Source: an archaeon GW2011_AR5
Lineage (GTDB): Archaea > Aenigmatarchaeota > Aenigmatarchaeia > GW2011-AR5
Length of the DNA stretch: 64,000 nucleotides
Assembly (NCBI GenBank): GCA_000806115.1
Contig: JWKQ01000001.1
Span: forward strand, 368,915-432,914
Direction of reading: 5' to 3'
Shown: positions 2,878-62,486 of the stretch, piece by piece
Layout: each line of letters begins with the position of its first letter
Numbering within the stretch: position 1 is the first letter of the stretch
Program-made: the position numbers and the translations under genes
The notes under the pieces: model-generated
The model's input: the letters and a program-made list of their open reading frames with translations, nothing else
Told to the model about the DNA's origin: nothing
The model's database searches: none

Positions 2878-3629
2878 ACAAACTGGAAATTAAAAACCTG
2901 CACGTATCCATTGGAGAAAAGGAAATAATCAAGGGATTCAACCTCACCATAAAAGAAGGCGAAATCCACGCGGTGATGGGCCCCAACGGCTCCGGCAAGT
3001 CCACGCTGAGCTATGCCATAATGGGTCACCCGCGTTACACAGTAACAGAAGGCGAAATACTTTTCAACGACAAGAACATAAACGAGATGTCCACCGACGA
3101 GCGCGCAAAGCTCGGACTTTTCCTGTGTTTCCAGTATCCAATGGAGGTTCACGGCGTCCAGGTTTCCAATTTCCTGAGGCTTGCTTCCAACAGCGTGCAG
3201 GGAGCGGAGGAGCCCGTGAGCGAATTCAGAAAAAGGCTCAAGGAGAACATGGCTTCGTTGAAAATGAGCGACCAATTTGCAAGCCGCTACCTCAACGACG
3301 GATTTTCGGGGGGCGAAAAAAAGCGCGGAGAGATACTCCAGATGTCAGTTCTCAAGCCGAAATTTGCCATACTCGACGAGGCGGACTCGGGGCTTGACAT
3401 AGACGCGCTGAAAATAGTGGCGGAAGGCGTGAACAATTCAATGAATACAACGCCGCTCGGAGTCCTGATAATAACGCACTACCAGAGGATACTCAACTTC
3501 ATCAAGCCGAACTTCGTCCACATAGTGGTTGACGGAAAGATAGTGCAGTCCGGCGGACCCGAACTTGCCGAGCGTCTTGACGGAGAGGGATACGGCTGGG
3601 CTTACGAAAAAGAAGAAGCGGTGATATAA
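2874..3629 (+). CDS. sufC: Fe-S cluster assembly ATPase SufC
   Basis: Walker [13 protein letters not shown] signature FSGGEKKR, Walker [11 protein letters not shown]. Located upstream of sufB. Confidence 0.95.
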
Positions 3630-5057
3630 ATGACGGAACAAAAGACTGAACAAAACCAGCAGCTTCATGACATACGCTCGAACTATGACGAACAGTTCGG
3701 GTTCAATGTAGACACGCCTACAATCAGGCAGACAAAGAAAGGGCTTTCACCCGAGATAGTAAGAGAGATTTCTGAGCTGAAGGGCGAGCCTCAGTGGATG
3801 CTGGACTTCAGGCTGAAGGCGCTTGAAACTTTCATGAGAAAGCCCATGCCAAAATGGGGGCCTGACCTCAGCATAATTAATTTTGACAATATCACATACT
3901 ACCTTTCTGCATCAAAAAACAAGGCAAAGAGCTGGGACGACGTTCCGGAGGGAATCAAGAACACCTTCGACAGGCTCGGGATTCCCGAAGCCGAGAAGAA
4001 ATTCCTCGCAGGTGTGGAGGCGCAGTTCGATTCTGAAGTTGTTTACAGCAAAGTCAGGGAAGACCTGGAGAAACTGGGCGTCATATTCTGCTCGACAGAC
4101 CAGGCGCTGAAGGAGCATCCGGAACTGTTCAGGGAATTCTTCGGCACCGTCATACCGTCGGAGGACAACAAGTTTTCCGCTTTGAACAGCGCATTCTGGT
4201 CAGGCGGCTCTTTCGTTTATGTGCCGAAAGGCGTGGATGTTCCAATACCTTTGCAGGCGTACTTCAGGATAAACACAAAGGAACTCGGGCAGTTCGAGAG
4301 AACACTGATAATTGCAGACGAAGGCAGCAAGGTGCATTATATCGAGGGCTGTACCGCACCGAGCTATTCCACTGACAGTCTGCATGCGGCGGTTGTCGAA
4401 GTCATCGCAATGCCCGGCGCCCACGTGAGGTACACGACGCTGCAGAACTGGTCAAACAACGTCTACAACCTTGTCACGAAGCGCGCTTTTGCCCACAAGA
4501 ACGCCATAGTCGAATGGCTCGACGCCAACATAGGCAGCAAGATCACGATGAAGTTCCCGAGCGTCTACCTGCTCGGCGAGAATGCGAAAGCGGACATGAT
4601 GTCAATAGCTTTTGCCGGAAAAGGACAGCTGCAGGACACCGGTGCCAAGGCAGTTCACCTAGCGCCGAACACGACATCGAGCATAATAAGCAAGTCAATA
4701 AGCAAGGACGGCGGACGCACAACCTACAGGGGGCTTGTGCGCGTCAACAAAGGGTGCACGGGCGTGAAATCAAACGTGCGCTGCGACGCGCTCCTAATGG
4801 ACGACAAGTCGACGTCCGATACGGTGCCGTACATAGAGATTGACGAGAAAAAAGTGTCCATAGGGCACGAAGCATCCGTGGGAAAAATCGGCGAGGAACA
4901 GCTTTTCTATCTTATGTCGCGGGGACTTAGCGAGCAGGAGGCGACGGGACTGATAGTCCGCGGCTTCTTCGACTGCTTCACGAAACAGCTCCCGCTTGAG
5001 TATGCCGTTGAATTCAACCGACTCATCGAGATGGAGATGGAAGGAAGCGTCGGGTGA
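3630..5057 (+). CDS. sufB: Fe-S cluster assembly protein SufB
   Basis: 475 aa with a typical SufB C-terminus ([26 protein letters not shown]). Confidence 0.95.
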
Positions 5058-10849: not shown

Positions 10850-10984
10850 ATGAACAACCAGAGAGGAAAATTGTTTGAGTGCAAGAAGTGCACAAAGGAG
10901 CTGCTAATAACAAGAGAGGGAAAGAACCCCGGACCTCCGATGTGCTGCGGAAACACGATGTTCGAGATAAAAGCTCGGTTCTAA
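10850..10984 (+). CDS. desulforedoxin-like microprotein (44 aa)
   Basis: My own translation gives MNNQRGKLFECKKCTKELLITREGKNPGPPMCCGNTMFEIKARF. The CxxC...CC spacing matches desulforedoxin and the Dfx N-domain. GAGGTGA lies 6 nt upstream, with TATATATAAA further up. Confidence 0.55.
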   Translation: MNNQRGKLFECKKCTKELLITREGKNPGPPMCCGNTMFEIKARF

Positions 10985-10985
10985 A

Positions 10986-11011
10986 CTTCGTATTCGCATA
11001 ACGAATACGAA
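10986..11011 (+). terminator. hairpin immediately after the desulforedoxin-like ORF
   Basis: ttcgtattcg / cgaatacgaa forms a 10-bp stem with a 5-nt loop, followed by atttct. Confidence 0.4.
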
Positions 11012-11222
11012 TTTCTCAATGACTCATGAAATGTTCCTAATATCTCTGGACTAAAGCCCAGAGTATCATGGGAACATGGCATCCAGAATGCATACAGAAA
11101 ACAAAGTTTTCTGTAGCATCAGTTAGCTTCGCTAACTGCTTGCATTGAGTTTTATCTGCAACCTAAAGGTTGCAGTATTCAATGCATTCTTAGATAAATT
11201 TACATGTTAAGTCATTGAAATC
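11012..11222 (+). repeat. family-1 multi-hairpin intergenic element, copy A
   Basis: Outer stem tcaatgact (11016) / agtcattga (11210). P1 atgttcc/ggaacat. P2 atccagaatgca...tgcattcttagat. Inner hairpins at 11044-11063 and 11156-11175 carry TAAA loops. Two extra hairpins are inserted at 11089-11140. No ORF. Confidence 0.8.
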
Positions 11223-14362: not shown

Positions 14363-15049
14363 TCACAGCCACTTAGCGCTGGTAGGTATCTCCCCGTAGC
14401 ATTTGTCGCGGTACTCGCAGTACTTGCACATCCACACTGTTTTCTTGTCTTCCCTCGCTTCGGGGTCCGGCGGCACTCCAGCTTTCAGGAACTTGTGCAG
14501 TGCCCTGAAACGGTTTATTATCTTGACGGCTTCTTCCTCGCTGTAGGGCACAGAAAACACCTTGCTCTTGAGATTGCGCTTGTCGACATAAAGCAGGATG
14601 CCGTTGTGAATGCCCGTGACGTGCATGTAGAGCTGCAGCTGCACCACGTTGTGCGGCATCGCGTCCTCGACGAAGTCAACGTTGCCTGTGGACTTCACCT
14701 CAACAAGGATGCTCTTGCCGCTGGCTTTCACAATTATGATGTTGTCAATCCTGCCTGAAACGAGAAAGTCGTCATATTCCTGCTTGAAAGGCAGCTCGGT
14801 GCTTACCAGTTCCACGTCCGGGTTCTTTTCGCTTTGCAGCACCTTCACGACAAAGTCATGGAGGATGTTGCCAAGCTCGAATATCTTGACAAGCTCGGGC
14901 GAGGTCTCCATGGGGAACTTGTACGAGTACCACACCTTCCGCAGGCAGCTCCCTATCTGGCTGGGATAATACCTGCCTATTTCCTTGGGCTTGTTCTCCT
15001 TGTAGAGGTGGTTGTCTATCATCTTGTCAAAGTCAATCATAAATTTCAC
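14363..15049 (-). CDS. Cas4/RecB-like PD-(D/E)xK nuclease with Fe-S cysteines
   Basis: N-terminal Cys (QIGSCLRK), RIDNIII...LVEVKST nuclease core and C-terminal CKYCEYRDKC. Confidence 0.7.
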   Translation of the reverse strand: MKFMIDFDKMIDNHLYKENKPKEIGRYYPSQIGSCLRKVWYSYKFPMETSPELVKIFELGNILHDFVVKVLQSEKNPDVELVSTELPFKQEYDDFLVSGRIDNIIIVKASGKSILVEVKSTGNVDFVEDAMPHNVVQLQLYMHVTGIHNGILLYVDKRNLKSKVFSVPYSEEEAVKIINRFRALHKFLKAGVPPDPEAREDKKTVWMCKYCEYRDKCYGEIPTSAKWL

Positions 15050-15108
15050 CTGACTTCGATTCTTGAAGAAGCTTTGCTTCTGTCAAGATGTCAAAATCAA
15101 TCATACAA

Positions 15109-15288
15109 TCAGTCCCTCACAAGCTCGAACGAATGCCGGGCTATCCTGAGCCTGCTCACGTCATTCACGCGTATCTCAAACGGGACGCCGCTGCCTATTG
15201 CTTCAGAATACCTTTTGACAGGTTCCGTGCTCATCCAGTAGAGTTCCAGAAGCTTCCTTAACTGTTCAGGATTCGAATAATCTTCCAT
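15109..15288 (-). CDS. hypothetical protein (59 aa; long version would start at 15363)
   Basis: Track ORF 15109..15363. I prefer the ATG at 15288 because the upstream 75 nt lie inside structured repeat H. Confidence 0.35.
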   Translation of the reverse strand: MEDYSNPEQLRKLLELYWMSTEPVKRYSEAIGSGVPFEIRVNDVSRLRIARHSFELVRD

Positions 15289-15319
15289 GAGTTTCACTTG
15301 ACTGCAAGAGGTTAAAAGT

Positions 15320-15421
15320 CTATATAATGAACCCACAAAAGATTTTCGCGCAAGTGAGTTCATAGATAGTGCACAAGGAAGTAATATTATTCAGATTATT
15401 TCCTTGTAGCACTATAAAAAC
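15320..15421 (+). repeat. family-2 two-hairpin element, copy H
   Basis: ctatataatgaacccac...gtgagttcat, then atagtgcacaagg...ccttgtagcactat, then aaaaac. Paralog of 56072-56176. Ends in a TATA-like CTATAAAAA about 27 nt upstream of the 15444 ATG. Confidence 0.7.
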
Positions 15422-15443
15422 TGCTCCCATGAATAAATAAAAT

Positions 15444-16151
15444 ATGTCCAAGCGTGAGAAACTTCACAAAGCCAGCAGCACAGGCAACAACCTGCGCGAC
15501 ATAATTCTCGGCGGACAGGACGGGCTGGTAAACGTGCTGGGCGTCATACTTGCCGTTGCCACCGCGGTCAGCGACGTGAGAGTCGTGCTCATCGCGGGAC
15601 TGGCAGCCACATTCGCCGAATCCATATCCATGGCGGCTGTTGCATATACGTCAACAAAGGCGGCGCGCGACTTCTACAAGGCAGAACTCCGAAGAGAGAA
15701 GAGAGAGATGAAGGACATACCTGACATGGAACGCAAAGAAATCAGGATGATATATGCGAGAAAAGGCTTCTCCGGCGCGCTCCTCAACTCGATTGTCAAA
15801 AAAATCACGTCCAACAAGAGGCTGTGGCTCAAGACAATGATGGAGGAGGAGCTTCACTTATACCCCGACGAGTACAATCACCCCGCCAAGGACGCCATAA
15901 TAGTCGGCATAGCTGCGCTGATAGGCTCGCTCGTGCCGCTTATATCATTCATTTTCCTGCCGATACAAACGGCGATAATCGGCTCGATAGTTCTGTCGGT
16001 TGCAGTGCTTTTCATAACAGGCTACATCAAGGGCATGCTCACCATAAATCCGCTGAGAAGCGGCATAGAAATAGCGGTCATCGGCATAACTGCAGCGCTG
16101 GTGGGATATGTCATCGGCGCCGTGCTCGGCGTTGCGCTTTACGCAGCCTAG
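15444..16151 (+). CDS. VIT1/CCC1-family iron/manganese transporter
   Basis: ILGGQDGLVNVLGVILAVA N-domain, central cytosolic helix region and C-terminal TM bundle. Confidence 0.75.
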   Translation: MSKREKLHKASSTGNNLRDIILGGQDGLVNVLGVILAVATAVSDVRVVLIAGLAATFAESISMAAVAYTSTKAARDFYKAELRREKREMKDIPDMERKEIRMIYARKGFSGALLNSIVKKITSNKRLWLKTMMEEELHLYPDEYNHPAKDAIIVGIAALIGSLVPLISFIFLPIQTAIIGSIVLSVAVLFITGYIKGMLTINPLRSGIEIAVIGITAALVGYVIGAVLGVALYAA

Positions 16152-19117: not shown

Positions 19118-22027
19118 TCAACCTTTCACGTTGCCGACAGGAACGAATTTGCAGACTTTGCTGGATATACCTGCCTTGTGCACGGCGTCTATCACTTCGT
19201 CTATGTCCTTGTAGGCGCTTCCCGCTTCCTCTGCGAGCCCCGCGAAGCTTGTTGTGCGCACGTATATTCCGCGCTTCTCCATGTCGCGCTGAAGGCTGTC
19301 TCCCCTGTAAAGCTGCCTCGCCCTCGTGCGCGACATCGTCCTTCCCGAGCCGTGAGCGGTGCTGCCGAAGGTTTCCTTCATACCCTTTTCCGTTCCCACC
19401 AGCAAATATGAGCCTGTCTCCATCGAGCCGCCTATGATTACCGGCTGCCCTATGTCACGATATATTTTTGGCACTTCCTCGCGCCCGGGACCGAATGCAC
19501 GCGTTGCGCCTTTCCTGTGAACCAGCACCTGCTGCCTTTTCCCGTTGACATCATGCTCCTCAAGCTTCGCCGTGTTGTGTGCCACGTCATAGACGCAGTT
19601 CATCTCCATCGACTCTGCCGACTGCCCCATCACCTTTGAGAAGCACTCCCGTATCCTGTGTAATATAACCTGGCGGTTGGCAAAACTCATGTTGATGCCG
19701 CATTTCATCGCCGTGAAGTAATCCTGGCCCTCTTTGCTCTGGAAAGGCGCGCATGCAAGCTCGCGGTCCAGTATCTTTATTCCGTACTTGGATTCCATAA
19801 CTTCGAGGAAGACGTTGAGATAATCCGTGGCAACCTGGTGCCCGAAGCCGCGGCTCCCGCAGTGGAACATAACCACTACCTGGTTGGGAAAGATTCCCAT
19901 CCGTTTTGCGATTTCCTTATCGACTATGTTCTCAGGCTTCACCACCTGTATCTCAAGATAGTGGTTGCCGCTGCCGAGCGTCCCAATCTGGTCCATGCCG
20001 CGCTCGATTGCCTTTGAGCTGACTTTTGATGCGTCACCTTCCATCTTACCGTTCTCTTCTATCCGCTCGAGGTCCTCTTCCCAGCCGTAACCTTGCTTCA
20101 CAGCCCATTCCGCGCCGCCCACGATAGCCTCGCGGAAGGTATTCTTGTTAAGCTTGACAAACCCCTTGCTGCCCACACCGGCGGGGACGCGCTCGAACAA
20201 CAAATCCACAAGCTGCTTCAGCTTCGGCTTGACGTCCTTGTAGGTAAGATTGGTTGTCAGAAGGCGCATTCCGCAGTTATGAGAAACTATGCAATTCGCT
20301 ATGAAATTATGATGGCGGCTAGGCATTGTGAAATCATAGACATATCCGTCATATTCGATATTTTTAATTTCCGAAACCTCATCTTTGATAAACTCGGAAT
20401 TTGGAATCTCAACCGTTCTACAAAATTCTTGGAATGTGGGGAAACTCCCTGAAATTCTCACGCCTTTATAGGTCTTATATTTTCTTGCTCTTACTCTGCT
20501 CTTCATGTCTGAAATTTCAATTTCATTGCACTCGATCATCTTCTCCAGATTTTTCAGATATTCACGCTTGAAATTCAGATAAGAAAGCGCAAGCATGGAA
20601 AGCCTTCTCCGTTCTGCGCAATATTCATAGCCAATGTTACCCCATAATCTACTCAAATTTTCAGGCTTTGCTGATAATCTGAGTGCAAGCTTGTGGGTTG
20701 GCTCTCCGAATGTATTAATTGCAATCCTTTGCCTGTATATTTTATTGGCAACAACCCCAAATTCCAGAAGGAGATTTGTTATTTCCAGAATGAAGTTCAT
20801 ATTATCCTTTTCAAGACTGTCTATCTTGTTCTGGCTAAAACTAGGCTCAGTGAAGCTCGTCAATTCGCTCTTCCTCTGACATGGCTTATTAAGCTCTGCA
20901 CCAAAGAGCCCGGCAAGATAAAGCCTTTTTATCCACTTTGGAGCTTTTCCAATCCATTTCGGAACAGATGTTTTTGTCCGAGATTTATTGCCTTTTGGAA
21001 CACCAAGAGCATGGAGCAAAACACTCAATGCCTGGGAATTAATATGGTATTGCGTGCTTTTTCCTATTATTTCCTGTTTAGAGCCGGATCCAGTTGTGAT
21101 CGTGCTTGAATAATCCAATGTCCTGATATGTGTTGCCTTGAATCCAAGCTCGAAAATGTCCTCTTTAATTTCTTCAAGATCTTCCTGTTTTCCTATAATT
21201 CTAGTAGACCAAATATCCATGCTTCTTTTTTTGGAAAAGTATGATCCTACCCATCCATCGCCTGTTATGAAACCAACAAGCTTTGCCAATATAGGTAATT
21301 TTGCAGAATTGTATCTCAATGGCAGGAGAGATTTTTCTTTAAGCTCTTTCACTATATTTTCCCTATTGCCTACAATGGATCGAATAGCATTTTCATCTAA
21401 GATTATATCACTAGACGGCTCCTCATATTCTATCCCATTAAATGGATGAATAATGATTTTTTGACCCTCTCTCATTTCGCTTGCTTCTATGAACTCGCTG
21501 CCCGTATACAGAGGATGATCAGAAGAAAGGATGATTTCATGACCGGTTTTTGTAGTTATTTTCAGGACTGGCTTGTCTGATTCCTTTGCCAAAAATATTA
21601 CAGGCTTGTCATGCAGTTTATTGCTATTTTCAGTATCAATATAGCTAACTGTATCTGTGCATTTCTCCATTTCTTTTATTTTTCTGAAATATCCAAAGCG
21701 TGTAAGTATTCTTGTCTCCGGATGCAAGCAGTTGATGTCGAATCCTATTCCGCCGGGAGAAATGACGCCTTTCTCGACGTCCATCGCCGCGACGCCGCCT
21801 ATCGGAAATCCGTACCCGGAGTGCCCGTCAGACATGCAATAAGCATAATTGATGATACCCGGCAGCGTGGCTACATTGGTTATCTGGTCATAAACCTGCA
21901 TGTCCATCTGGGCGACTATTCCCTCGGTGCCTATAATCTTCGCAGGCACGTGCATGCCCGGCTTGTAAGTCTTCGGGATAACCCATTCAGTTTCGCTGAC
22001 TTTCTGCAAAAAGTTTGGTACTGCCAA
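19118..22027 (-). CDS. rtcB: RNA-splicing ligase RtcB, interrupted by an intein
   Basis: Exteins carry the RtcB motifs (GGIGFDIN | CGMRLL, GSGNHY, HCGSRGFGH, HGSGR). 969 aa, against about 480 for an intein-free RtcB. Confidence 0.95.
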   Translation of the reverse strand: MAVPNFLQKVSETEWVIPKTYKPGMHVPAKIIGTEGIVAQMDMQVYDQITNVATLPGIINYAYCMSDGHSGYGFPIGGVAAMDVEKGVISPGGIGFDINCLHPETRILTRFGYFRKIKEMEKCTDTVSYIDTENSNKLHDKPVIFLAKESDKPVLKITTKTGHEIILSSDHPLYTGSEFIEASEMREGQKIIIHPFNGIEYEEPSSDIILDENAIRSIVGNRENIVKELKEKSLLPLRYNSAKLPILAKLVGFITGDGWVGSYFSKKRSMDIWSTRIIGKQEDLEEIKEDIFELGFKATHIRTLDYSSTITTGSGSKQEIIGKSTQYHINSQALSVLLHALGVPKGNKSRTKTSVPKWIGKAPKWIKRLYLAGLFGAELNKPCQRKSELTSFTEPSFSQNKIDSLEKDNMNFILEITNLLLEFGVVANKIYRQRIAINTFGEPTHKLALRLSAKPENLSRLWGNIGYEYCAERRRLSMLALSYLNFKREYLKNLEKMIECNEIEISDMKSRVRARKYKTYKGVRISGSFPTFQEFCRTVEIPNSEFIKDEVSEIKNIEYDGYVYDFTMPSRHHNFIANCIVSHNCGMRLLTTNLTYKDVKPKLKQLVDLLFERVPAGVGSKGFVKLNKNTFREAIVGGAEWAVKQGYGWEEDLERIEENGKMEGDASKVSSKAIERGMDQIGTLGSGNHYLEIQVVKPENIVDKEIAKRMGIFPNQVVVMFHCGSRGFGHQVATDYLNVFLEVMESKYGIKILDRELACAPFQSKEGQDYFTAMKCGINMSFANRQVILHRIRECFSKVMGQSAESMEMNCVYDVAHNTAKLEEHDVNGKRQQVLVHRKGATRAFGPGREEVPKIYRDIGQPVIIGGSMETGSYLLVGTEKGMKETFGSTAHGSGRTMSRTRARQLYRGDSLQRDMEKRGIYVRTTSFAGLAEEAGSAYKDIDEVIDAVHKAGISSKVCKFVPVGNVKG
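20276..21730 (-). mobile_element. intein (485 aa) with LAGLIDADG homing-endonuclease domain
   Basis: Starts with Cys100 (CLHPETRIL) right after FDIN. Ends ...IVSHN, followed by the +1 Cys of CGMRLL. LAGLIDADG-type motifs LVGFITGDGW and YLAGLFGAEL. Confidence 0.85.
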
Positions 22028-26694: not shown

Positions 26695-26758
26695 AAGCGG
26701 TTTTCCGATTTTTTTAATTTAACAATTTACCTATTTTTTAAAAACAATCAGAAATCAG

Positions 26759-26976
26759 ATCTTCCTAATATCCCACGACTTTAGTTGTGGATTTGCAAGG
26801 ATGACTCAAAGAGTCATCCTGCACGGAAGGAACTTCGTTCCTTCCTGTGTTGGAAGATAGGATTCAGATTCATTGTGTTTCACAAGGACTTCGAAGAAAT
26901 CCTGTGCAGGAAAAGCAAAGCTTTTCCTCGCATCACGCGACTAAAGTCGCGTGTTTTCAATGAATCTAGAATAATC
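26759..26976 (+). repeat. family-1 multi-hairpin intergenic element, copy C
   Basis: P1 atcttcc (26759) / ggaagat (26852) encloses TAATA and three hairpins. P2 attcagattcattg (26862) / caatgaatctagaat (26958) encloses three hairpins, including 26934-26953 with a TAAA loop. Track ORF 26785..26982 lies wholly inside and is rejected. Confidence 0.8.
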
Positions 26977-28098: not shown

Positions 28099-28331
28099 TT
28101 TATAGTCTCCCTTATTTTGTTAATCTTTCCCTGATCATTGAGGACTTTGAATAAAATATGCAATCCAAAGTCTTCTATTCTAGATAATAATTTCATCTAC
28201 TTAAAGCTTTCAAGAATTTTGCCGAATAATGGCGTAATTTTAACGTGATTGAAACGTGGTTGACAGTTTTGCATAAGAAAGAAAAATATCCGCAAAACAT
28301 CCTAAAGAAGTTTGCCCGTCATACTTGTCGC

Positions 28332-28454
28332 ATGGCAATTACAAACATCTCAGTCAAATCCGAGCAGAGAAAGTGCATAATGTGCGAAGGCAGCCTTGAA
28401 AAATCGAATATGGGCATGATATGCAACGACTGCAGGGACAAGATGAGGAAATAA
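28332..28454 (+). CDS. zinc-ribbon microprotein (40 aa)
   Basis: MAITNISVKSEQRKCIMCEGS...ICNDCRDKMRK (CxxC...CxxC). Internal ATG of track ORF 28245..28454. Confidence 0.35.
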   Translation: MAITNISVKSEQRKCIMCEGSLEKSNMGMICNDCRDKMRK

Positions 28455-28550
28455 TGCCGAGGAAGGAAAATGGCTGGCGAGCTTTGCTCGCATTCGGCTG
28501 CTTCCTAAGGCTTTACCATCCTTAGGTCGCTACGCCCCTTTTATAGCGAA

Positions 28551-28697
28551 CCAAGTTATGAAATGCTCCTAATAACCCGCACCTAAAGGTGCGGGTTTCA
28601 TGGGAGCATAGCATCCAGAATGCATTGAGTTTCATCTGCCGCATAAATGCGGCAGTTTTCAATGCATTCTCGGATAATATCCAGATTCTTTACTTGG
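28551..28697 (+). repeat. family-1 multi-hairpin intergenic element, copy B (minimal form)
   Basis: Outer stem ccaagt (28551) / acttgg (28692). P1 atgctcc (28563) / ggagcat (28603) around TAATA and hairpin 28575-28596. P2 atccagaatgcattga (28613) / tcaatgcattctcggat (28659) around hairpin 28636-28655. Confidence 0.8.
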
Positions 28698-28716
28698 TCA
28701 GCTATATTCAACTCTT

Positions 28717-35065: not shown

Positions 35066-35182
35066 ATGATGAAGCTCCTCATAGGTCGCTGTTCCCAGTG
35101 CAAGAAGATAAGGCTGGTCGACAGGTCAAAGGGAAACAACGTCTGCTTTGCGTGCAAGCAGAAAAGAAAGAAGAAGGTATGA
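35066..35182 (+). CDS. zinc-ribbon microprotein (38 aa)
   Basis: My own translation gives MMKLLIGRCSQCKKIRLVDRSKGNNVCFACKQKRKKKV. Confidence 0.35.
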   Translation: MMKLLIGRCSQCKKIRLVDRSKGNNVCFACKQKRKKKV

Positions 35183-35403: not shown

Positions 35404-35478
35404 TGTTTCATGTAAAACCCTCTATTTTAACATTTGCTTAGCTGTGTTATTGGGGATCACATTGTTATCTTGATATCA

Positions 35479-35621
35479 CATCTTCTTTGTTAGAAGATGG
35501 GACCCCGAATGCGCCTCTAATACATGATGAAGCTTCGCTTCACCTGTACAGAAAGAACTTCGTTCTTTCATGTGCATGCCGTCTAAAGACGGCAGTTTCA
35601 GGCACATTCAAGATAATTATC
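35479..35621 (+). repeat. family-1 multi-hairpin intergenic element, copy D
   Basis: P1 catcttc/gaagatg with loop tttgtta. P2 cgaatgcgcc (35506) / ggcacattc (35601) encloses TCTAATA and three hairpins (TTC, TTC and TAAA loops). Near-identical to copy E. Track ORF 35487..35681 lies inside and is rejected. Confidence 0.8.
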
Positions 35622-45216: not shown

Positions 45217-45279
45217 AGATATGTATTTGGAGCGGCACTATTAATTTTTATACGTGCGCATCATTGTAAAATTTCATCA

Positions 45280-45453
45280 CATCTTCTTTGTATACCCACG
45301 ACTTTAGTCGTGGGTTTGTTAGAAGATGGGATCCCGAATGCGCCTCTAATTAAACATGATGAAGCTTCGCTTCACCTGTACAGAAAGAACTTCGTTCTTT
45401 CATGTACATGCCGTCTAAAGACGGCAGTTTCAGGCACATTCAAGATGAGAATC
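45280..45453 (+). repeat. family-1 multi-hairpin intergenic element, copy E
   Basis: Same as copy D apart from two substitutions, a 3-nt indel and a 28-nt hairpin insertion (45292-45319) in the P1 loop. Confidence 0.8.
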
Positions 45454-45786
45454 AGCACGAAAGGCCTCAGGAAAGAGGAAGGCTACAGCTTCGAAGATGT
45501 CAGGCGCGCGCTGATAGACTGGCACATACCTTACGAGGTTACGCGCCGCCCGGCAAGAGCGGACACGTATTTCAGGAGCTCGGCAGTGATCCTTTGCGAA
45601 AGCGACCCTGAGAAAAGGCAGGGGCACATATCGAGGGTGATGGAAAGGTTCAATGCGCGTCAATCGGACGGCTATCTTTCATGCCATGCGTACTACAGAA
45701 TTACGCCAGAGTTTGACTTATCCGTGCTGAACGGGCATCCAAAATTCTTGAATGGCATGCTTGTCGAAATTACATTAATAGGATGA
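45445..45786 (+). CDS. hypothetical protein (113 aa)
   Basis: ATG at 45445 lies in the tail of repeat E. In frame with track ORF 45064..45786, whose upstream part runs through the repeat and antisense to the transposase fragment. Confidence 0.35.
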   Translation: MRISTKGLRKEEGYSFEDVRRALIDWHIPYEVTRRPARADTYFRSSAVILCESDPEKRQGHISRVMERFNARQSDGYLSCHAYYRITPEFDLSVLNGHPKFLNGMLVEITLIG

Positions 45787-47736: not shown

Positions 47737-48117
47737 ATGAGTAGGAGAAGAAACCGTCTGCCGCGTACAATGGGGAAGCGATACGTGCCGCGGGCCGACA
47801 GAATCGGGCTTACGATTGGCGACAGGTCGTGGACATGGCGTCAGCTCGGCGACATGGACATCTACAACCCCCGGGCGCCATGGCTTCTTGAGTTCACGCT
47901 TGACAGGCTGGGTGTCGACACGTTCGGAAAGTTCATCCGAATGGATCCGGTGGAAATCTCGATGTACGCCGGCGATGAAACAGGCTTCGTCGCAATGATG
48001 GTGTACATGCACACGACCCACAAGGACCCGGACGACTGGGTCTCCAGAGAAGAGAAACCTGTCAGGTGGAGCACTCACAAACGCCGCCTGAAGAAGAGGA
48101 AGAGACAGCAACGCTAA
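47737..48117 (+). CDS. hypothetical basic protein (126 aa)
   Basis: Track ORF after GGAAGGAGAAGG. Arg/Lys-rich termini. Confidence 0.5.
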   Translation: MSRRRNRLPRTMGKRYVPRADRIGLTIGDRSWTWRQLGDMDIYNPRAPWLLEFTLDRLGVDTFGKFIRMDPVEISMYAGDETGFVAMMVYMHTTHKDPDDWVSREEKPVRWSTHKRRLKKRKRQQR

Positions 48118-48182
48118 CCAGCATCAGGGGGAACAGAGAATTATGGAGCCTCCGCACCGCAATACAAAGAAAGGAGACGGCT

Positions 48183-48989
48183 GTGTATACAGAACAGGAA
48201 GTCAGGACAATCGCCGTGTTCGCGCTGCTGGCGATCGTCATTGGCAGGAACGCGCGTTCGCGCGCGGCGTTCTTCACGCTTGCCATGTTCGGCGGCGTCA
48301 TGACATTCAGTGCCCTGATGAACGCCATCGTGCCGGTGCTCAACAAGACTCTGGACAGGGACGCCATGGGAATCACAGCGCTGCTCGCTGCATTCGTCCT
48401 CTCGATGCTGCTCGCTGTCGCAACTCTGTATGCGAGCATGCGCAGCAAGGTCCCGAAGGAACCATCCCGCAACTCCGGCGCATGGACTGCGTTCGCCGTA
48501 ACGCTCATCATCGTCGGCGCCGTCGCGAACATGTACAGCGCCGTTCTCGCAAGAGTGCTGATGGCGCTCGGCGTCTGCGTCTTCTTCGGAAGGCAGCTGA
48601 TGAAAAGGGGTGCAGTCATCCTGCTTGCGGTCCTGATGTCAGGGTGCAGCGGCAACGGTGATAGTTCGCTCTGGGCAGTCGTCCTGCTGGGAGTGTTTGC
48701 CCTGCTTCGTGCGCTCTCGCCCGGAATTGTCGGCGCAGCAACGGGAGAACGCAGTGTCGACGAAGACGACGGCGCGCACTGCACGGACTGCAACGCCTAC
48801 TCTTCGAAGTCCTGCGCCAAGTGCAGCACGCCGTTCTGTGAGAACTGCGCGAAGCGCACGCTGAACAATCAGCACATGTGCGCACAGTGTTCGGGTGAAG
48901 CGGAAGTCGCTTGCCCGAGGTGCGGATACGCGACGACGATCTCGCACATGGAGGACGTCTGTCCGGTGTGTGCAGGGAGTGAACCGTGA
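48183..48989 (+). CDS. multi-TM protein with C-terminal multiple zinc-ribbon (CxxC x5-6) domain
   Basis: Same frame as track ORF 48066..48989. I prefer the GTG at 48183, preceded by AAAGGAGA. C-terminus HCTDCN...CAKCS..FCENC...CAQC...CPRCG...CPVC. Confidence 0.55.
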   Translation: MYTEQEVRTIAVFALLAIVIGRNARSRAAFFTLAMFGGVMTFSALMNAIVPVLNKTLDRDAMGITALLAAFVLSMLLAVATLYASMRSKVPKEPSRNSGAWTAFAVTLIIVGAVANMYSAVLARVLMALGVCVFFGRQLMKRGAVILLAVLMSGCSGNGDSSLWAVVLLGVFALLRALSPGIVGAATGERSVDEDDGAHCTDCNAYSSKSCAKCSTPFCENCAKRTLNNQHMCAQCSGEAEVACPRCGYATTISHMEDVCPVCAGSEP

Positions 48990-49228
48990 GAACATTTCTC
49001 GTTGTCGTTGTCATCGCGCTGGTGCTGGACTTCGTACTTTTCGGCGGCGCGTTCACGATGCTCGTCATCGGGTTCGGCATCACACTGGTGGCGCTGCTCT
49101 TCGGGTTCGCAACCGGAATCGTCAAGCTCGTGCTGGGCACGGCTGCGATGTTACTTGGCATGGCGATTCCATTAGCTGCGCTGCTCGTCGTCGGGTTCGC
49201 GATTTGGTTTTTCGTTTTTCGCCGTTAA
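48986..49228 (+). CDS. small two/three-TM membrane protein (80 aa)
   Basis: Track ORF. GTGA overlap with the upstream stop. Confidence 0.45.
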   Translation: MRTFLVVVVIALVLDFVLFGGAFTMLVIGFGITLVALLFGFATGIVKLVLGTAAMLLGMAIPLAALLVVGFAIWFFVFRR

Positions 49229-49252
49229 CGCGCTATGCGCAAAGGAGACTCT

Positions 49253-50461
49253 ATGATCTGGTGGTTCACTCTCGCTCTGCTCGTCGGGGTCGGCATGTTC
49301 ACGTTCGCGAAGTGGAACGTCCTCTCGGACAACAACAGGAAGACGGCACTCGTTGGTGACGCAGTCCTATTGATTGCGCTGTTCACCGGCAGTTTGCTCT
49401 GGTGGCTCTGGCTCGTGGCGTTCGTGTTCAGCGCCGTGCATCTCGGAGTCAACTGGAAGAGGATGTCGTTTGACGGCAGGCTCGGCGCGTGCATCCTGCT
49501 GGCCGTCCTCGCGATGTTGCTGTTTGCCACCAAGGGCTTCTACTGGTGGCTGGCGCTCGTCGTGCTGATCATCACCGGCATCGTCGGCGCGTTCGTCTGG
49601 CGCGGAGCATCGCCCCGATCCCGCGCGGGACTTGCCGGAGTCGCCGCCCTGCTCTTGCTGCTGCTATTCCTGCTGTACGACGCGAAGCAGCCGCTGAACT
49701 TCATGGGCGGCGAAGCCCAGGCTGCACCGACAACGCTCGGCGACCAGGCGCAGCACACCGTCGTGCGTGGCGACTGGCTGCGGAACATCGCGCCGCGCTA
49801 CAAGAACGTCGGGTGGGAATCCCTGCTGCTGCGCAACGAGCCGTTCCTGCAGGCGAAGTACGAAGAAGTCTGCGGGAAGCTGAACGAGCGGTACACGAAC
49901 AACCCGAAGCGTCACGGCACGTTCTGCAACGAACGGTACAACCGCCCGTACGGCAACACGCTCGTGCCGGGATGGGTGCTGGCGATTCCGTCGGGCAGTG
50001 CGCCGCAGCAAATTCAGGACGCTGTCATCACGTCGACAGGGCAGAAGGTTGCGCTTGTCATTGACGACAGCGGGTCGATGAACGATGATCGCACGCGCGT
50101 TGCGTTGATGTACGACGCCGCGCTGCGGAAGCACGGCAAGAACCTCATCGGCGTGTGGCTGTACGCCGACGGCCAGGTTCGTCACTACAGCGAGGGCAAT
50201 GTGGAGCTGCACACCACCGGTAACGTCGAGAACACGTGGAATGCGTTATCCGAGGCGGCGAAGGAGAAGCCCGACACCATCATCCTCGTCACGGATGAGG
50301 TCGGCGACGACTGGCCGGCTGACCTCAAGAAGGCGGGCACCGGCTGGTTCACAAAGATGCCGCCCGTCGTGGCAACGTGCCTGCCGCCGTACGAGTGTGA
50401 AGTGACGCTCAACGCGCTCGTCAACGCGTTCGGCGGGAAGTACGTCCGGTACGGGCAGTAG
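49253..50461 (+). CDS. membrane-anchored LysM-like + von Willebrand factor A (vWA) domain protein
   Basis: N-terminal TM bundle. HTVVRGDWLRNIAPRY...LVPGWVLAIP is LysM-like with an insert. vWA MIDAS VALVIDDSGSM plus ...IILVTDE. ATG at 49253 after AAAGGAGA. Confidence 0.7.
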   Translation: MIWWFTLALLVGVGMFTFAKWNVLSDNNRKTALVGDAVLLIALFTGSLLWWLWLVAFVFSAVHLGVNWKRMSFDGRLGACILLAVLAMLLFATKGFYWWLALVVLIITGIVGAFVWRGASPRSRAGLAGVAALLLLLLFLLYDAKQPLNFMGGEAQAAPTTLGDQAQHTVVRGDWLRNIAPRYKNVGWESLLLRNEPFLQAKYEEVCGKLNERYTNNPKRHGTFCNERYNRPYGNTLVPGWVLAIPSGSAPQQIQDAVITSTGQKVALVIDDSGSMNDDRTRVALMYDAALRKHGKNLIGVWLYADGQVRHYSEGNVELHTTGNVENTWNALSEAAKEKPDTIILVTDEVGDDWPADLKKAGTGWFTKMPPVVATCLPPYECEVTLNALVNAFGGKYVRYGQ

Positions 50462-50588
50462 AAGTTCACCGGGCCGTGTTGTAAAGAACACGTGTAGTGT
50501 TCTTACACAGGGCATGCCGGATAACTCAAAGGTATGCCCTTGTGTCAACACGGTCCACAATATCAACAACTTTTCAGGAGACAAAGCG

Positions 50589-51350
50589 ATGAAGCGAATC
50601 CTCATCATGCTCGCGCTGCTCGTTGCGGCAAGCGCGTGCAGCAACAAGAAAGAAGAACCGCAGCAAGCCCGGCAGTCACCTCAGGCACAACCCACGCAGA
50701 CAGCGGTGGCACAGCCTGAGACGCCAAAACAACTCGCGCCCGCGAAGACTGAAGAAGACGTGATGAAGGAGTGGCGCGATGAGAAGGGCATCCCGACGCT
50801 CGACTCCATCACCATCGAGAGCGTGCGGCAGCTCGCTAATACGGTAATGGAGAAGGATCCGTACAGCGAACACTTCACTATCGACGGCCATGTCAGTGAG
50901 GGTTTCGGAAACGGCGTCGATACGCTCTTCGTCGCGCAGCTGATCGCGCGCCAGAACCGTTACCTCGAAAGTGTGTTCAACAAGATGCCGGTGCTGCAAC
51001 GCCGTGAAGTCGTCCAGCAGGCGGCGAACATCGTTGCGTCGCATGCTACCAGCTACCTGCACCCGAACGACCTGCGTGCGTGGCTGGTGAACTACGAATG
51101 GAAGCGCGACATCGAGCCGGTCAATCCCGACTGGTATCAGGGCACGAAATGGCCGGAGAATCGTCTCGAGCCCGTGGAGCCCACGCTGAGCAGTGACAAC
51201 GAGAGCGGGCGCATCAAGGATCCGAAGGCGAAGGGTTTCAAGCTCTCGAAGGTGGATCTCTGGTGGCGGATGTTCTGGAAGCGCCGCGGGGAAATCATCT
51301 TCAACGCAGCGAAGTCGGCTGCTGCTGCGGAGCTCGCGAAGAAGCGATGA
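50589..51350 (+). CDS. putative lipoprotein (253 aa)
   Basis: MKRILIMLALLVAASAC has a lipobox-like signal. ATG at 50589 after CAGGAGA, inside track ORF 50514..51350. Confidence 0.55.
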   Translation: MKRILIMLALLVAASACSNKKEEPQQARQSPQAQPTQTAVAQPETPKQLAPAKTEEDVMKEWRDEKGIPTLDSITIESVRQLANTVMEKDPYSEHFTIDGHVSEGFGNGVDTLFVAQLIARQNRYLESVFNKMPVLQRREVVQQAANIVASHATSYLHPNDLRAWLVNYEWKRDIEPVNPDWYQGTKWPENRLEPVEPTLSSDNESGRIKDPKAKGFKLSKVDLWWRMFWKRRGEIIFNAAKSAAAAELAKKR

Positions 51351-51433
51351 ACAACAAGAAAGGCAAACCAGGCAGGGCGAAGCGAAGCCTTTCCGCTGCA
51401 AGAAGTCCTGTAAAATCAGAGAGGGTGCCATGA
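51347..51433 (+). CDS. possible basic micropeptide (28 aa)
   Basis: My own translation gives MNNKKGKPGRAKRSLSAARSPVKSERVP. ATGA overlaps at both ends are the only support. Confidence 0.2.
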   Translation: MNNKKGKPGRAKRSLSAARSPVKSERVP

Positions 51434-51765
51434 AGATTGAGGGGTTCGATTCGGAAGTAATAAGGGAGCTTGTCAGGCGGGGTGTAGAAGCCCGGCTTCA
51501 CGAGCTGAAGAGTGTGCTGGCCGAGGTGGAGAAGATTCGCCGCCTCTTTCCAGACATCTATCAGCGAGTCGTCAACGAACCGAGCGTGCCGTTGAAGACG
51601 AGCGGCAAGAAGCGCACAAGTGGAGCGAAGCCGCGGAAGGACATCGGGGTTCCGCAGAAGAAGCGCGGCAGTAAGCGGCGCGGAATGTCGGCGGCTGAGC
51701 GCAAGGCGGTCGGGGAGCGCATGAGGAAGTACTGGGCGGAGCGGCGCAAGGAGAAGGAAAAGTAG
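51430..51765 (+). CDS. basic protein (111 aa) with C-terminal SAAxRKAxxxRMRKYWAERR motif
   Basis: ATG at 51430 inside track ORF 51193..51765. The C-terminal motif resembles one common in small bacterial DNA-binding-like proteins (recollection only). Confidence 0.45.
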   Translation: MKIEGFDSEVIRELVRRGVEARLHELKSVLAEVEKIRRLFPDIYQRVVNEPSVPLKTSGKKRTSGAKPRKDIGVPQKKRGSKRRGMSAAERKAVGERMRKYWAERRKEKEK

Positions 51766-51804
51766 CGTCAGGACAGGGCGCGGCTCTACAGCGCGGCGAA
51801 GGCC

Positions 51805-52095
51805 ATGAAGAAGGGACTCGTCTGGGACTTCGTCTGTTCACAGAGGGGTTTCTGCGTGGCGATGAACGTGCCGCCAAGCTTCTACACCAACTCGAAGGTG
51901 TCGTCGGCGCCGACCCTCGAGCTCCCGTCCATCGGCGAACTGGCGATGGCGCTCGAAGAGGAATTCGACGTCGAGATATATGAGGACGAGGCGGAGAAGA
52001 TGACGAGAGTCAAGGACGCCGTCGAACTCGTCGAACGAAAGCTTCGCGAGAAGAAGAGCAGCGAGGCACCGAAGCGCCGCGAAGACGAGGAGTGA
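51805..52095 (+). CDS. acyl-carrier-protein-like protein with atypical N-terminus
   Basis: LPSIGELAMALEEEFDVEIYEDEAEKMTRVKDAVELV resembles the ACP helix II-IV region ([28 protein letters not shown]). The Ser context is PSI rather than DSL. Confidence 0.45.
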   Translation: MKKGLVWDFVCSQRGFCVAMNVPPSFYTNSKVSSAPTLELPSIGELAMALEEEFDVEIYEDEAEKMTRVKDAVELVERKLREKKSSEAPKRREDEE

Positions 52096-59214: not shown

Positions 59215-59417
59215 GGCATATCAGCTTTTGATGCCGCTTGGTTTTTGCGGCACATTCTTTTCTTTTTCACAACATGCAACTGTCAATGACCACCGCATTT
59301 ATGCGGTGGCTTGCTGAAATTGGCAAATCATTGAGCAATTCGCATTCATTGCTTTTGAATAATTTCTTGAAGGCAATGGAATGCGAAGTTTTAAGGTTGT
59401 CATGACAAATCTATTTT

Positions 59418-60788: not shown

Positions 60789-60885
60789 GGGGTCATAGTA
60801 TAAAGAGCTCCAGTAAAGCTCGTAAAACCTGGTAGAACGTCAGTCTCCAAAACTGATTATGGGGGTTCGAATCCCTCTGACCCCA
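60789..60885 (+). tRNA. tRNA-Trp (anticodon CCA) with a 23-nt insertion in the D-arm
   Basis: Acceptor ggggtca/tgacccc + A. Anticodon arm tcagt-ctCCAaa-actga (CCA at 60847-60849). T-arm ggggg-ttcgaat-ccctc. 97 nt in total. Removing 60805-60827 leaves a 74-nt cloverleaf. Confidence 0.7.
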
Positions 60886-60893
60886 TCAGGATT
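60870..60893 (+). repeat. direct repeat copy 1 (tRNA-Trp 3' end + trailer)
   Basis: AATCCCTCTGACCCCATcaGGATT. 17/17 identical, then 22/24 overall, to 61016-61039. Confidence 0.85.
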
Positions 60894-61015
60894 GCTTCGA
60901 TTAAGTTTTGCTTAATCGAGCCGCCAGTTGAACTACGTTCAACTGAGCGCGAACCTTGGGTTCGTCTGCGAATGAACTTTGTTCATTCGAGAGCTCAGTG
61001 TCAAGAAACTGCAGC
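60894..61015 (+). repeat. tandem-hairpin cassette between the tRNA-Trp 3'-end duplicates
   Basis: Four consecutive hairpins: tcgattaag/cttaatcga, cagttgaac/gttcaactg, cgaacc/ggttcg and cgaatgaac/gttcattcg. No ORF. Confidence 0.7.
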
Positions 61016-61039
61016 AATCCCTCTGACCCCATTGGGATT
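61016..61039 (+). repeat. direct repeat copy 2 (duplicate of tRNA-Trp 3' end)
   Basis: AATCCCTCTGACCCCATtgGGATT. Confidence 0.85.
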
Positions 61040-62082: not shown

Positions 62083-62209
62083 GCTCTTCAGTCCCGCTTA
62101 GGCGGGCGGAAGCGGTTTACGGAATGCTGATGTCAGACCGATAATTTAGTCCTATTTCTTTTTTCTTTCTCTATCATTTTCACTTCTCTGTTGTTTTGTA
62201 GGTTAATTA

Positions 62210-62300
62210 CATCTTCTTGTGTAAGAAGATGGAATCCAGAACTCATCCCTTCATCCCATGGCTAAAGCCATGGGTTTTCAGATGAATTCTTAGATAATTC
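62210..62300 (+). repeat. family-1 multi-hairpin intergenic element, copy F (short form)
   Basis: P1 catcttct/agaagatg. P2 atccagaactcatc (62234) / gatgaattcttagat (62281) around hairpin 62255-62274 (TAAA loop). Tail ATAATT. Confidence 0.75.
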
Positions 62301-62486
62301 CAAAATTTTGGGAAATTATAGTATCGGACAATCCTATTTGGGAATATTATTGGTTGTCCGTACTACAAGGTTGAGCGCAGCTCAACCTGTACAGGTGAGA
62401 CGAAGTTTCACCTTGTATATGTGAAGACATAATCATAATATCACTCTAAATTGTTATGTCTTGCACTATATTCCAATTCCGGAATT

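Follow-up and report, generated by a model that had tools for sequence, protein, structure and literature searches.

Intergenic multi-hairpin elements of an Aenigmatarchaeota chromosome are probably mobile, nested palindromic DNA repeats

What kind of element causes several intergenic spacers of one archaeal chromosome to fold alike while their sequences drift? This question is raised by a 64,000-nt stretch of chromosomal DNA (hereafter, the window) from the uncultured archaeon GW2011_AR5, a member of the Aenigmatarchaeota (DPANN), in which a preliminary description had reported six multi-hairpin spacers with compensatory stem changes and had suggested selection on an RNA or single-stranded DNA (ssDNA) fold rather than decaying repeats. 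On balance, we think that these elements, here termed family 1, are probably non-autonomous, modular, nested palindromic DNA repeats that are mobile within the chromosomes of a narrow Aenigmatarchaeota clade and fold as ssDNA. The copies, several of them near-identical, are scattered over unrelated loci. At orthologous spacers some relatives have them and others lack them; they lie nested in other hairpin repeats and occur as tandem composites, chimeras and decayed copies, and their orientation ignores gene direction and is biased to one chromosomal strand. Of the two folds originally proposed, that of ssDNA fits best, whereas the positions, orientation and loop inversions of the copies lend no support to a conserved RNA.

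The six look-alike spacers are real, and every stem, hairpin and mismatch coordinate that we checked agreed with the first account, including those of the stems P1 (11031/11071, 28563/28603 and 26759/26852) and P2 (28613-28675, 26862-26972, 62234-62295 and 35506-35609), the inner hairpins given with them and, by reading of the sequence, the C.A positions at 11084/11192 and 35512/35604. All six copies can be aligned with one another and follow a common plan of a P1 stem, a linker, a P2 stem and 0-3 inner hairpins. Element boundaries were taken from matches to a covariance model, which was built from five minimal copies and recovers all copies. These matches confirmed the sites but showed that the limits first given for copies A and C were too wide, and in copy A the AAT of what had been described as a GATAAT-like tail is flanking sequence rather than part of the element. 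The copies are as follows.

11026-11195, + strand: copy A, of the A/C subtype (covariance-model score 72.5 bits); P1 is ATGTTCC/GGAACAT with one TAAA hairpin, and P2 is ATCCAGAATGCAT..TGA / TCAATGCATTCTTAGAT with three inner hairpins, two of them flanked by a TGCAT direct repeat.
26754-26972, + strand: copy B; P1 is ATCTTCC/GGAAGAT around three hairpins, and P2 is ATTCAGATTCATTG/CAATGAATCTAGAAT, also around three hairpins, with one nucleotide lost from both arms relative to other copies.
28558-28675, + strand: copy C, a minimal representative of the A/C subtype, with one hairpin in P1 and one in P2 (covariance-model score 128.8 bits).
35475-35614, + strand: copy D; P1 is CATCTTCT/AGAAGATG without an inner hairpin, and P2 is CCCGAATGCGCCT/AGGCACATTCAAG, enclosing a double-hairpin module homologous to the core of a second repeat family (family 2, see below) and a terminal TAAA hairpin.
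45276-45446, + strand: copy E, equivalent to copy D (96% identity across 102 nt) with one more hairpin, in the P1 loop, bounded by a TTTGT direct repeat.
62206-62295, + strand: copy F, the shortest (covariance-model score 82 bits); P1 lacks an inner hairpin, and P2 is ATCCAGAACTCATC/GATGAATTCTTAGAT with one TAAA hairpin.

The repeated unit can be written as 5'-AT(C/G)A.AT-P1(5')-[0-3 hairpins]-P1(3')-GG.-P2(5')-[1-3 hairpins]-GTTT(T)CA-P2(3')-..GAT-3', and its copies fall into A/C, B, D/E/M and F/X2/Y types. Two kinds of inner module were observed, one with a 7-10 bp stem and a 4-nt loop (TAAA, TTTA, TGAA or TTAA) and the other with a 3-nt loop (TTC/GAA or AAA/TTT); TTT(T) comes after every TAAA-type hairpin on the + strand. 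A degenerate 27-nt pattern spanning the junction of the P1 3' arm, the linker and the P2 5' arm matched exactly these six sites in the window, all on the + strand, compared to an expectation of 0 in shuffled sequence, and no further copy was found there by blastn-short, a repeat finder or the covariance model, giving a density of approximately one element per 10 kb in this genome. The copies are strongly folded, with minimum free energy (MFE) z-scores of -4.8 to -11.9 on both strands relative to dinucleotide shuffles. Perfect hairpins with a stem of 8 bp or more and a 3-6-nt loop number 26 in the window, compared to 3.65 in shuffles, and 17 of the 26 lie inside the six copies.

Family 1 appears to have been previously unannotated, judging from database comparison of its sequence. 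The earlier statement that no described RNA family could be recognized held at both gathering and permissive Rfam thresholds, where nothing relevant was returned and the sub-threshold overlaps were with unrelated bacterial small RNA models only (E values 0.3-1). A scan with the junction pattern of one genome per GTDB species returned four loci, all in a single metagenome-assembled genome (MAG), Candidatus Aenigmatarchaeota archaeon RIFCSPLOWO2_01_FULL_48_10, as well as two bacterial matches that the covariance model rejected as chance. This MAG differs from the genome of the window, and the elements alone match between them. A scan of metagenomes with the same pattern added seven further loci, while viral contigs (searched with two patterns), phage records and plasmids yielded no family-1 match. 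Family 1 thus occurs in a few related DPANN genomes. The DNA of the window itself recurs in several groundwater metagenomes, and homologues are labelled Candidatus Aenigmarchaeota or Aenigmatarchaeota.

The compensatory change in the stems is genuine and was seen both in hand-registered arms and in a covariance-model alignment. An alignment of element skeletons by MAFFT was discarded for pair counting, as it placed P2 out of register. In hand-registered arms from 11-12 distinct copies, P1 had changed on both sides at 4/9 positions, and P2 had done so at 6/16, with an additional paired one-nucleotide deletion in both arms of copies B and X1. Pairing in these arms amounted to 90-91%, compared to 78-80% when 3' arms were shuffled among copies, and none of 2000 shuffles reached the observed value. 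In the covariance-model alignment of 12 copies from several genomes, 92.1% of cells were paired, compared to 79.6% after shuffling (0/500), and 18 of 37 pairs had changed on both sides, compared to 8.2+-1.8 after shuffling (0/500), with double changes in all four helices; these figures come from paralogous repeat copies in an alignment fitted to the model. Control registers, in which partners were slid, paired at only 34-45%. The main point of the first account, that stems differ between copies yet remain complementary, is therefore confirmed. One decayed copy was also seen (L013, 2617-2716).

The preliminary description had also remarked that mismatches tend to be C opposite A on the + strand. 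This asymmetry holds in P2, where all 14 of 14 non-Watson-Crick cells are C in the 5' arm opposite A in the 3' arm on the + strand; at least six or seven separate events gave rise to them, among them a further one in the relative L031. P2 consequently pairs completely, with G.T, on the minus strand only. The asymmetry does not extend to the whole element, however, as MFE structures contain 30 wobble pairs on the + strand and 40 on the minus strand, and a minus-strand RNA spanning the whole element, considered on the basis of wobble counts, was rejected for this reason. Moreover, P1 of the A/C subtype has T.G on the + strand at its loop-proximal pair, so that, given the C.A mismatches of P2 on that strand, neither strand pairs everything.

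Such data could be read as the signature of functional structured RNAs, whether small RNAs in many copies or RNA domains that act in cis, in which P2 would be read from the minus strand and the fold would be under RNA selection. The strong covariation in every helix, the compatibility of each P2 mismatch with G.U on the minus strand, a lower MFE on that strand in 11 of 15 copies, and the high identity of copies between genomes relative to coding DNA all favor this explanation. Covariation of this kind need not have an RNA origin, though. Template switching within inverted repeats homogenizes their arms, yields multi-nucleotide changes that appear compensatory, and inverts spacers (PMC8794818, PMC8604942). 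Compensatory change in short inverted repeats can also arise from template switching within the hairpin, without RNA selection. This mutational process accounts for perfect arms despite divergence, for multi-nucleotide 'compensatory' changes and for loop inversion; being a process and not a family of elements, it leaves the dispersal to new loci unexplained.

A conserved functional RNA family, as the first description had implied, is not supported by comparison of orthologous spacers, which were located via neighboring proteins: the copies are not retained in close relatives. Relatives whose neighboring proteins are 70-86% identical lack copies A, B, D, E and F at the orthologous spacers, in which a different copy or other clusters of hairpins are often found. 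At site A, L020 and L023 (85%) have flanks approximately 90% identical to those of the window and lack copy A at the point where CAT meets AAAT; they keep the hairpin that hosts it (TAATGACTCAT-AAATTTACATGTTA-...-AATCATTGA) and carry a family-2 cluster elsewhere in its loop. In L024, a 73% relative, this spacer is 85 nt long and has zero hairpins. Filled and empty versions of site A, the one clean pair, show a repeat of 2 nt at most. At site B, L028-L030 have short A/T-rich spacers and L027 has a different hairpin cluster. Copy D is absent from L027-L030; across a small Zn-ribbon gene from this site, L027 carries an oppositely oriented copy of the A/C type. No element occurs at site E in L031 or L032. 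At site F, the same two contigs (86%) keep the left flank (...tttgtaggttaat) and then read aACATCCAGATAAAT, which corresponds to copy F minus the interiors of P1 and P2, cut at ATC and AGA repeats, and which may be either a footprint or the ancestral site; their spacer contains a different, M-type family-1 copy approximately 480 nt away on the same strand. Since copies differ at sites A, B, D, E and F between relatives, their turnover appears to be fast.

Comparison with relatives also clarified the outer closing stems, which had been described as co-varying between copies (caatgact/agtcattg and ccaagt/acttgg). Both stems exist, but they are two unrelated, pre-existing host hairpins rather than parts of the family, and ccaagt/acttgg belongs to copy C and not, as stated, to copy B. 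The stem around copy A is the following feature.

11017-11217, no strand assigned: host hairpin of copy A, CAATGACT...AGTCATTG, which carries copy A in its loop and is not part of the family.

As L020 has this hairpin without copy A, and carries another cluster of hairpins elsewhere in the loop, the stem around copy A is a pre-existing hairpin. Copy C is likewise hosted by family 2, within the loop of one of its big-loop hairpins (arms at 28550-28557 and 28692-28698, followed by cagctata), and a homologous hairpin is present in L020. Nesting is also evident inside elements, as the first hairpin of copy M7 carries two others inserted into its TA^AA loop, and the double hairpin of copies D and E (..GAAGCTTCGCTTCACCTGTACAG..CTTCG..CATGT) shows homology with the core of family 2, a second composite repeat found at the following sites.

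62324-62470 of the window: family 2.
9763-9913 of L020: family 2.
2270-2420 of L010: family 2.
3400-3550 of L007: family 2.
7400-7520 of L009, minus strand: family 2.
3380-3530 of L028: family 2.

Family 2 consists of a big-loop hairpin, cacta, a double hairpin (..CCTGTACAGG..CTTGTAT), a second big-loop hairpin and c(a/g)ctata. Its stems vary but remain complementary, while its loops (aatctggata or the complement) and linkers are conserved, and its core module is nested inside family-1 copies B, D and E.

Some smaller features lie near these structures. Arms of the type that hosts copy A, CAATGA(CT)/(AG)TCATTG, occur both at 11017-11217 and at 59284-59333, where they hold a lone TTTA-loop hairpin, CCACCGCATTTATGCGGTGG. 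Upstream of copy A, a perfect 10-bp hairpin (TTCGTATTCG-CATAA-CGAATACGAA, 10987-11011) directly follows the stop codon of a 44-aa Zn-ribbon open reading frame (ORF); it is present with two uncompensated changes in the 85% relative and absent from the 73% relative. The possibility that ATGATGAAGCTT in copies D and E is a captured 5' end of a small Zn-ribbon gene was rejected because the gene is intact at 35066-35182.

The arrangement of the copies relative to genes bears on both RNA and regulatory explanations. All copies are intergenic, among ordinary archaeal chromosomal genes such as those for RtcB (with an intein), archease, HerA/Mre11/Rad50-type proteins, glutamate dehydrogenase, a PurD-like ligase, peroxiredoxins, superoxide dismutase, SepF, CTP synthase and PCNA. 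The gene pairs around copies are convergent, divergent, co-directional or antisense-tandem, so that read-through could not provide a fixed RNA strand, and the flanks are unrelated, with no shared promoter and no promoter or terminator belonging to the repeated unit. An interpretation as untranslated-region elements or riboregulators was rejected on the basis of this mixed orientation relative to genes, while bulge-helix-bulge introns were set aside, by inspection only, on context and missing defining motifs. The single orientation reported for the six copies is true within the window but not everywhere, as L027 has two copies on opposite strands 1.3 kb apart. Across the syntenic region of three genomes, 8/9 independent copies occupy one chromosomal strand, while local genes lie on both, and this bias is suggestive of a link to replication direction (p about 0.04).

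A small + strand ORF for a Cys-rich, zinc-ribbon-like protein lies a short distance upstream of each of copies A, C and D (10850-10984, 28245-28454 and 35066-35182); this could be a coincidence, as the genome is rich in such ORFs. In addition, an ORF at 45445-45786 starts at the ATG within the 3'-terminal CAAGATG of copy E, and the same is seen for the MAG copy in L009 (from approximately 6330 downward, minus strand). The 113-aa product of the ORF after copy E has no Pfam match and no counterpart in the 86% relative.

A further possibility is that mobile hairpins seeded signals since domesticated in cis, which would serve, for example, as bidirectional transcription stops or insulators, as stabilizers of mRNA 3' ends, or as binding sites for a structure-specific chromosomal protein. 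A domesticated role has been proposed for the repetitive extragenic palindromes (REPs) of bacteria and their clusters, the bacterial interspersed mosaic elements (BIMEs). The intergenic position of all copies, five of about 16 of which lie between convergent genes, the TTT(T) that follows TAAA-type hairpins, and the fixation of copy A, nearly invariant in six samples, are consistent with such a role. However, the same spacers of relatives do without these elements or use unrelated hairpins, copies also occur in divergent and antisense-tandem contexts, and the T-runs are just 3-4 nt, which is short for archaeal termination; no binding protein is known for them. We therefore consider domestication distinctly unlikely as the main explanation, and any effects on neighboring genes, for instance on transcript ends or stability, would be secondary.

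Changes among related copies point to events at the level of DNA. Identical stems are found with reverse-complemented loops in CGTC-TAAA-GACG and CGTC-TTTA-GACG, in CCCACGAC with TAAA or TTTA, and in GGCTC-AAA-GAGCC and GGCTC-TTT-GAGCC, and from sequence these flips seem best explained as loop inversion, not as three simultaneous substitutions. Loop inversion is a DNA-level event and speaks against a strand-specific function of the loop. Related copies also differ by whole modules, bounded by direct repeats of 0-5 nt (TTTGT, TGCAT, CATG, TG, AT or none); L013 contains a deletion chimera joined at two CTAAAG loops (4927-4977), and L019 contains a tandem extra P2. In the groundwater sample L004, which has 13 differences from the window over 5.5 kb, four cluster in or beside one hairpin of copy A (11050, 11051, 11057 and 11070); three of these change the tip of its first inner hairpin, and another falls where the P1 3' arm starts.

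These observations return us to structured RNA. The covariation supports it, but copies are not conserved at orthologous positions, read-through would carry either strand, the unit has no promoter placed to transcribe both arms of P1 and P2, loops flip on identical stems, decayed, chimeric and nested copies exist, Rfam offers no match, and neither strand pairs everything. Taken together, we regard a functional RNA as possible but unlikely.

[quoted passage not shown] Family-1 elements are small, intergenic, multi-copy and non-coding, the D/E/M subtype ends in CATCTT...AAGATG, and four copies have 5-nt flanking direct repeats. The termini, however, match at 5-6/12 positions, essentially ATC...GAT, and flanking direct repeats average 3.27 nt, compared to 3.39 nt for a null of mismatched flanks; the putative 5-bp TSDs (AATCA, AATCG, TATCA and TAATT) did not exceed this null, and site A has a repeat of no more than 2 nt. 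No related IS or transposase was present in the approximately 71 kb of this genome and the pieces of relatives that we read. The MITE explanation is thus largely refuted, and we judge it very unlikely; lacking the TIRs and TSDs of classical MITEs, these would be mobile repeats of another kind.

We propose instead that the elements act as hairpins in ssDNA, probably exposed at the replication fork, and that the minus strand would be the active one for P2, because all P2 mismatches become G.T there. A structure-dependent, strand-specific process may place them into A/T-rich spacers and hairpin loops. The likeliest agent would be an HUH/Y1-like enzyme for ssDNA that acts in trans and is encoded elsewhere, a preference based on four features: neither TIRs nor TSDs are present, the hairpins are subterminal, P2 pairs fully on one strand only, and orientation is biased. 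Once inserted, elements could lose modules when replication slips across hairpins, while template switching within hairpins could keep arms complementary and flip loops, and stems probably stay perfect both because the fold is required and because template switching homogenizes them.

Among known systems of this type, the IS200/IS605 family is the most widespread IS family in archaea. Family 1 resembles its 'peel-and-paste' derivatives, the palindrome-associated transposable elements, in having no TIR or TSD, one strand apparently active, an apparent chromosomal-strand bias in orientation, and subterminal hairpins (18 nt, hairpin, interior, hairpin, 21 nt): in most copies the first TAAA hairpin lies approximately 18 nt from the 5' end and the last ends approximately 21 nt from the 3' end, while D and F lack the first. 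Family 1 is unlike them in its long P1 and P2 closing stems and nested modules, and the approximately 330 kb of related sequence contained neither TnpA nor TnpB.

Several observations weigh against the proposal of mobile ssDNA repeats. The step involving ssDNA and an HUH-type enzyme is purely one that we infer, no mobilizing enzyme being encoded in the window or next to any copy, and Pfam lists and contig look-ups for the window and the regions beside the copies examined revealed no transposase, recombinase or reverse transcriptase. In contrast to IS200/IS605 derivatives, no conserved tetra- or pentanucleotide target precedes the left end, where flanks are unrelated. The empty site of copy A likewise does not retain the conserved ATCA/ATGA, contrary to expectation if that motif were the target. 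The orientation bias rests on nine events (p about 0.04). Each case of presence and absence can also be read as precise loss at 2-3-nt repeats, with no insertion polarized. Finally, two genomes whose coding DNA is mostly 64-88% identical have element copies that agree at 89-95%, which requires recent exchange or else constraint on the sequence, and the latter would be compatible with a function as well.

A further explanation would be integron-type attC sites, or other hairpin sites for tyrosine recombinases, which mark gene cassettes. In its favor, structure is conserved with variable sequence, one strand pairs better, terminal structures are variable and orientation is uniform in the window, and one relative (L032) has a tyrosine recombinase gene beside that for a Na+/H+ exchanger. 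The genes between copies, however, are housekeeping genes on both strands, 2-17 kb apart, and hence not cassettes; by inspection, the base of P2 has no R''/R' core sites (RYYYAAC/GTTRRRY), and the window encodes no integrase, making this extremely improbable. Alternatively, DPANN archaea may harbor an undescribed structure- and strand-specific system for ssDNA mobilization that recognizes the P1/P2 scaffold of the minus strand, or else scaffold RNAs resembling omega-RNA with a nuclease encoded in trans. This would explain selection on fold but not sequence, the pairing of P2 on the minus strand only, and the high similarity of copies between species, but we give it little credence at present.

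In their behavior, the mobile palindromic repeats that we propose appear closest to the selfish palindromes of Volvox organelles, although this resemblance implies no sequence homology. The mitochondrial and plastid DNA of Volvox carteri contains hairpins between genes whose stems vary and whose loops often read 5'-TAAA-3' or 5'-TTTA-3', without an associated transposase, and these palindromes have inserted within other palindromes to form larger, elaborate repeats (PMC2670323). Both sets are dispersed, non-coding, intergenic hairpins with TAAA/TTTA loops, palindrome-in-palindrome nesting and no associated transposase. The Volvox repeats, however, belong to eukaryotic organelles, are AT-rich and comprise one simple hairpin class, whereas family 1 has a two-domain P1/P2 scaffold, subfamilies, a strand-asymmetric P2 and an archaeal chromosome as its host.

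Bacterial mosaics offer a second comparison. BIMEs, as clusters of REP palindromes, and the pneumococcal BOX elements (boxA-boxB(n)-boxC) are composed of modular extragenic hairpin units in variable number. REPs are imperfect palindromes of 20-40 nt with a conserved GTAG head, sequence-conserved stems and a link to RAYT (Y1) transposases, and BOX modules are likewise conserved in sequence. Family 1 shares with them modular hairpin units that are strongly folded, multi-copy, non-coding and without a transposase in cis, so that both mosaics may be viewed as functional analogues; in contrast to them, its stems drift with compensation and its host is an archaeon. There was no conserved GTAG at the feet of the hairpins and no Y1 or RAYT domain in the Pfam lists of the regions examined.

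The genomes of DPANN archaea are tiny and compact, but this one nonetheless carries family 1 and at least one more family of hairpin repeats. The family-1 repeats would provide a clean natural case of an 'RNA-like' multi-hairpin architecture, with abundant compensatory change, arising and persisting in mobile DNA, and hence a caution for the discovery of non-coding RNAs by covariation. Should P2 prove to pair strand-specifically, and the elements to be biased in orientation, across the whole genome, they would point to a replication-coupled mechanism of ssDNA mobility in archaea with no enzyme yet assigned. The elements may also be handy as strain or species markers for tracking these uncultured populations.

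Several other features of the window and its relatives were noted. The two contigs compared at sites E and F, L031 and L032, come from different samples and encode an identical CTP synthase protein (P0202). A HicAB toxin-antitoxin pair of L032 has no counterpart at the same place in L031, and the tyrosine recombinase of L032 is a 521-aa protein encoded at a position that L031 ends short of (L032 loci 3125-3554 and 14477-16042). Intein content varies as well. RtcB has an intein in the window, whereas in L029 it has none and is present as two ORFs beside a free-standing LAGLIDADG gene. The SufB-like gene of L020 encodes 857 aa, including an intein with LAGLIDADG, while the window ORF matched to it by synteny encodes 475 aa (window 19118-22027 and 3630-5057, compared to 674-3247 in L020 and 18258-20577 in L029). 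The segment at 48000-52000 has about 60% G+C, compared to approximately 49% for the genome, and contains ORFs without clear domains, with weak double-zinc-ribbon and LysM matches; it differs in the 86% relative and may have been horizontally acquired.

Another hairpin cluster is associated with a tRNA gene at 60789-61032 (anticodon region ctCCAaa), which contains some 20 additional nt between its acceptor/position 9 and D-stem. This tRNA was missed by ARAGORN, and Rfam matches 60822-60877 only, with four hairpins following at 60897-60989. The 3' end of the tRNA, ATCCCTCTGACCCCAT, recurs as a 16-nt direct repeat at 60871-60886 and 61017-61032, an arrangement that looks att-like and encloses the hairpin cluster only.

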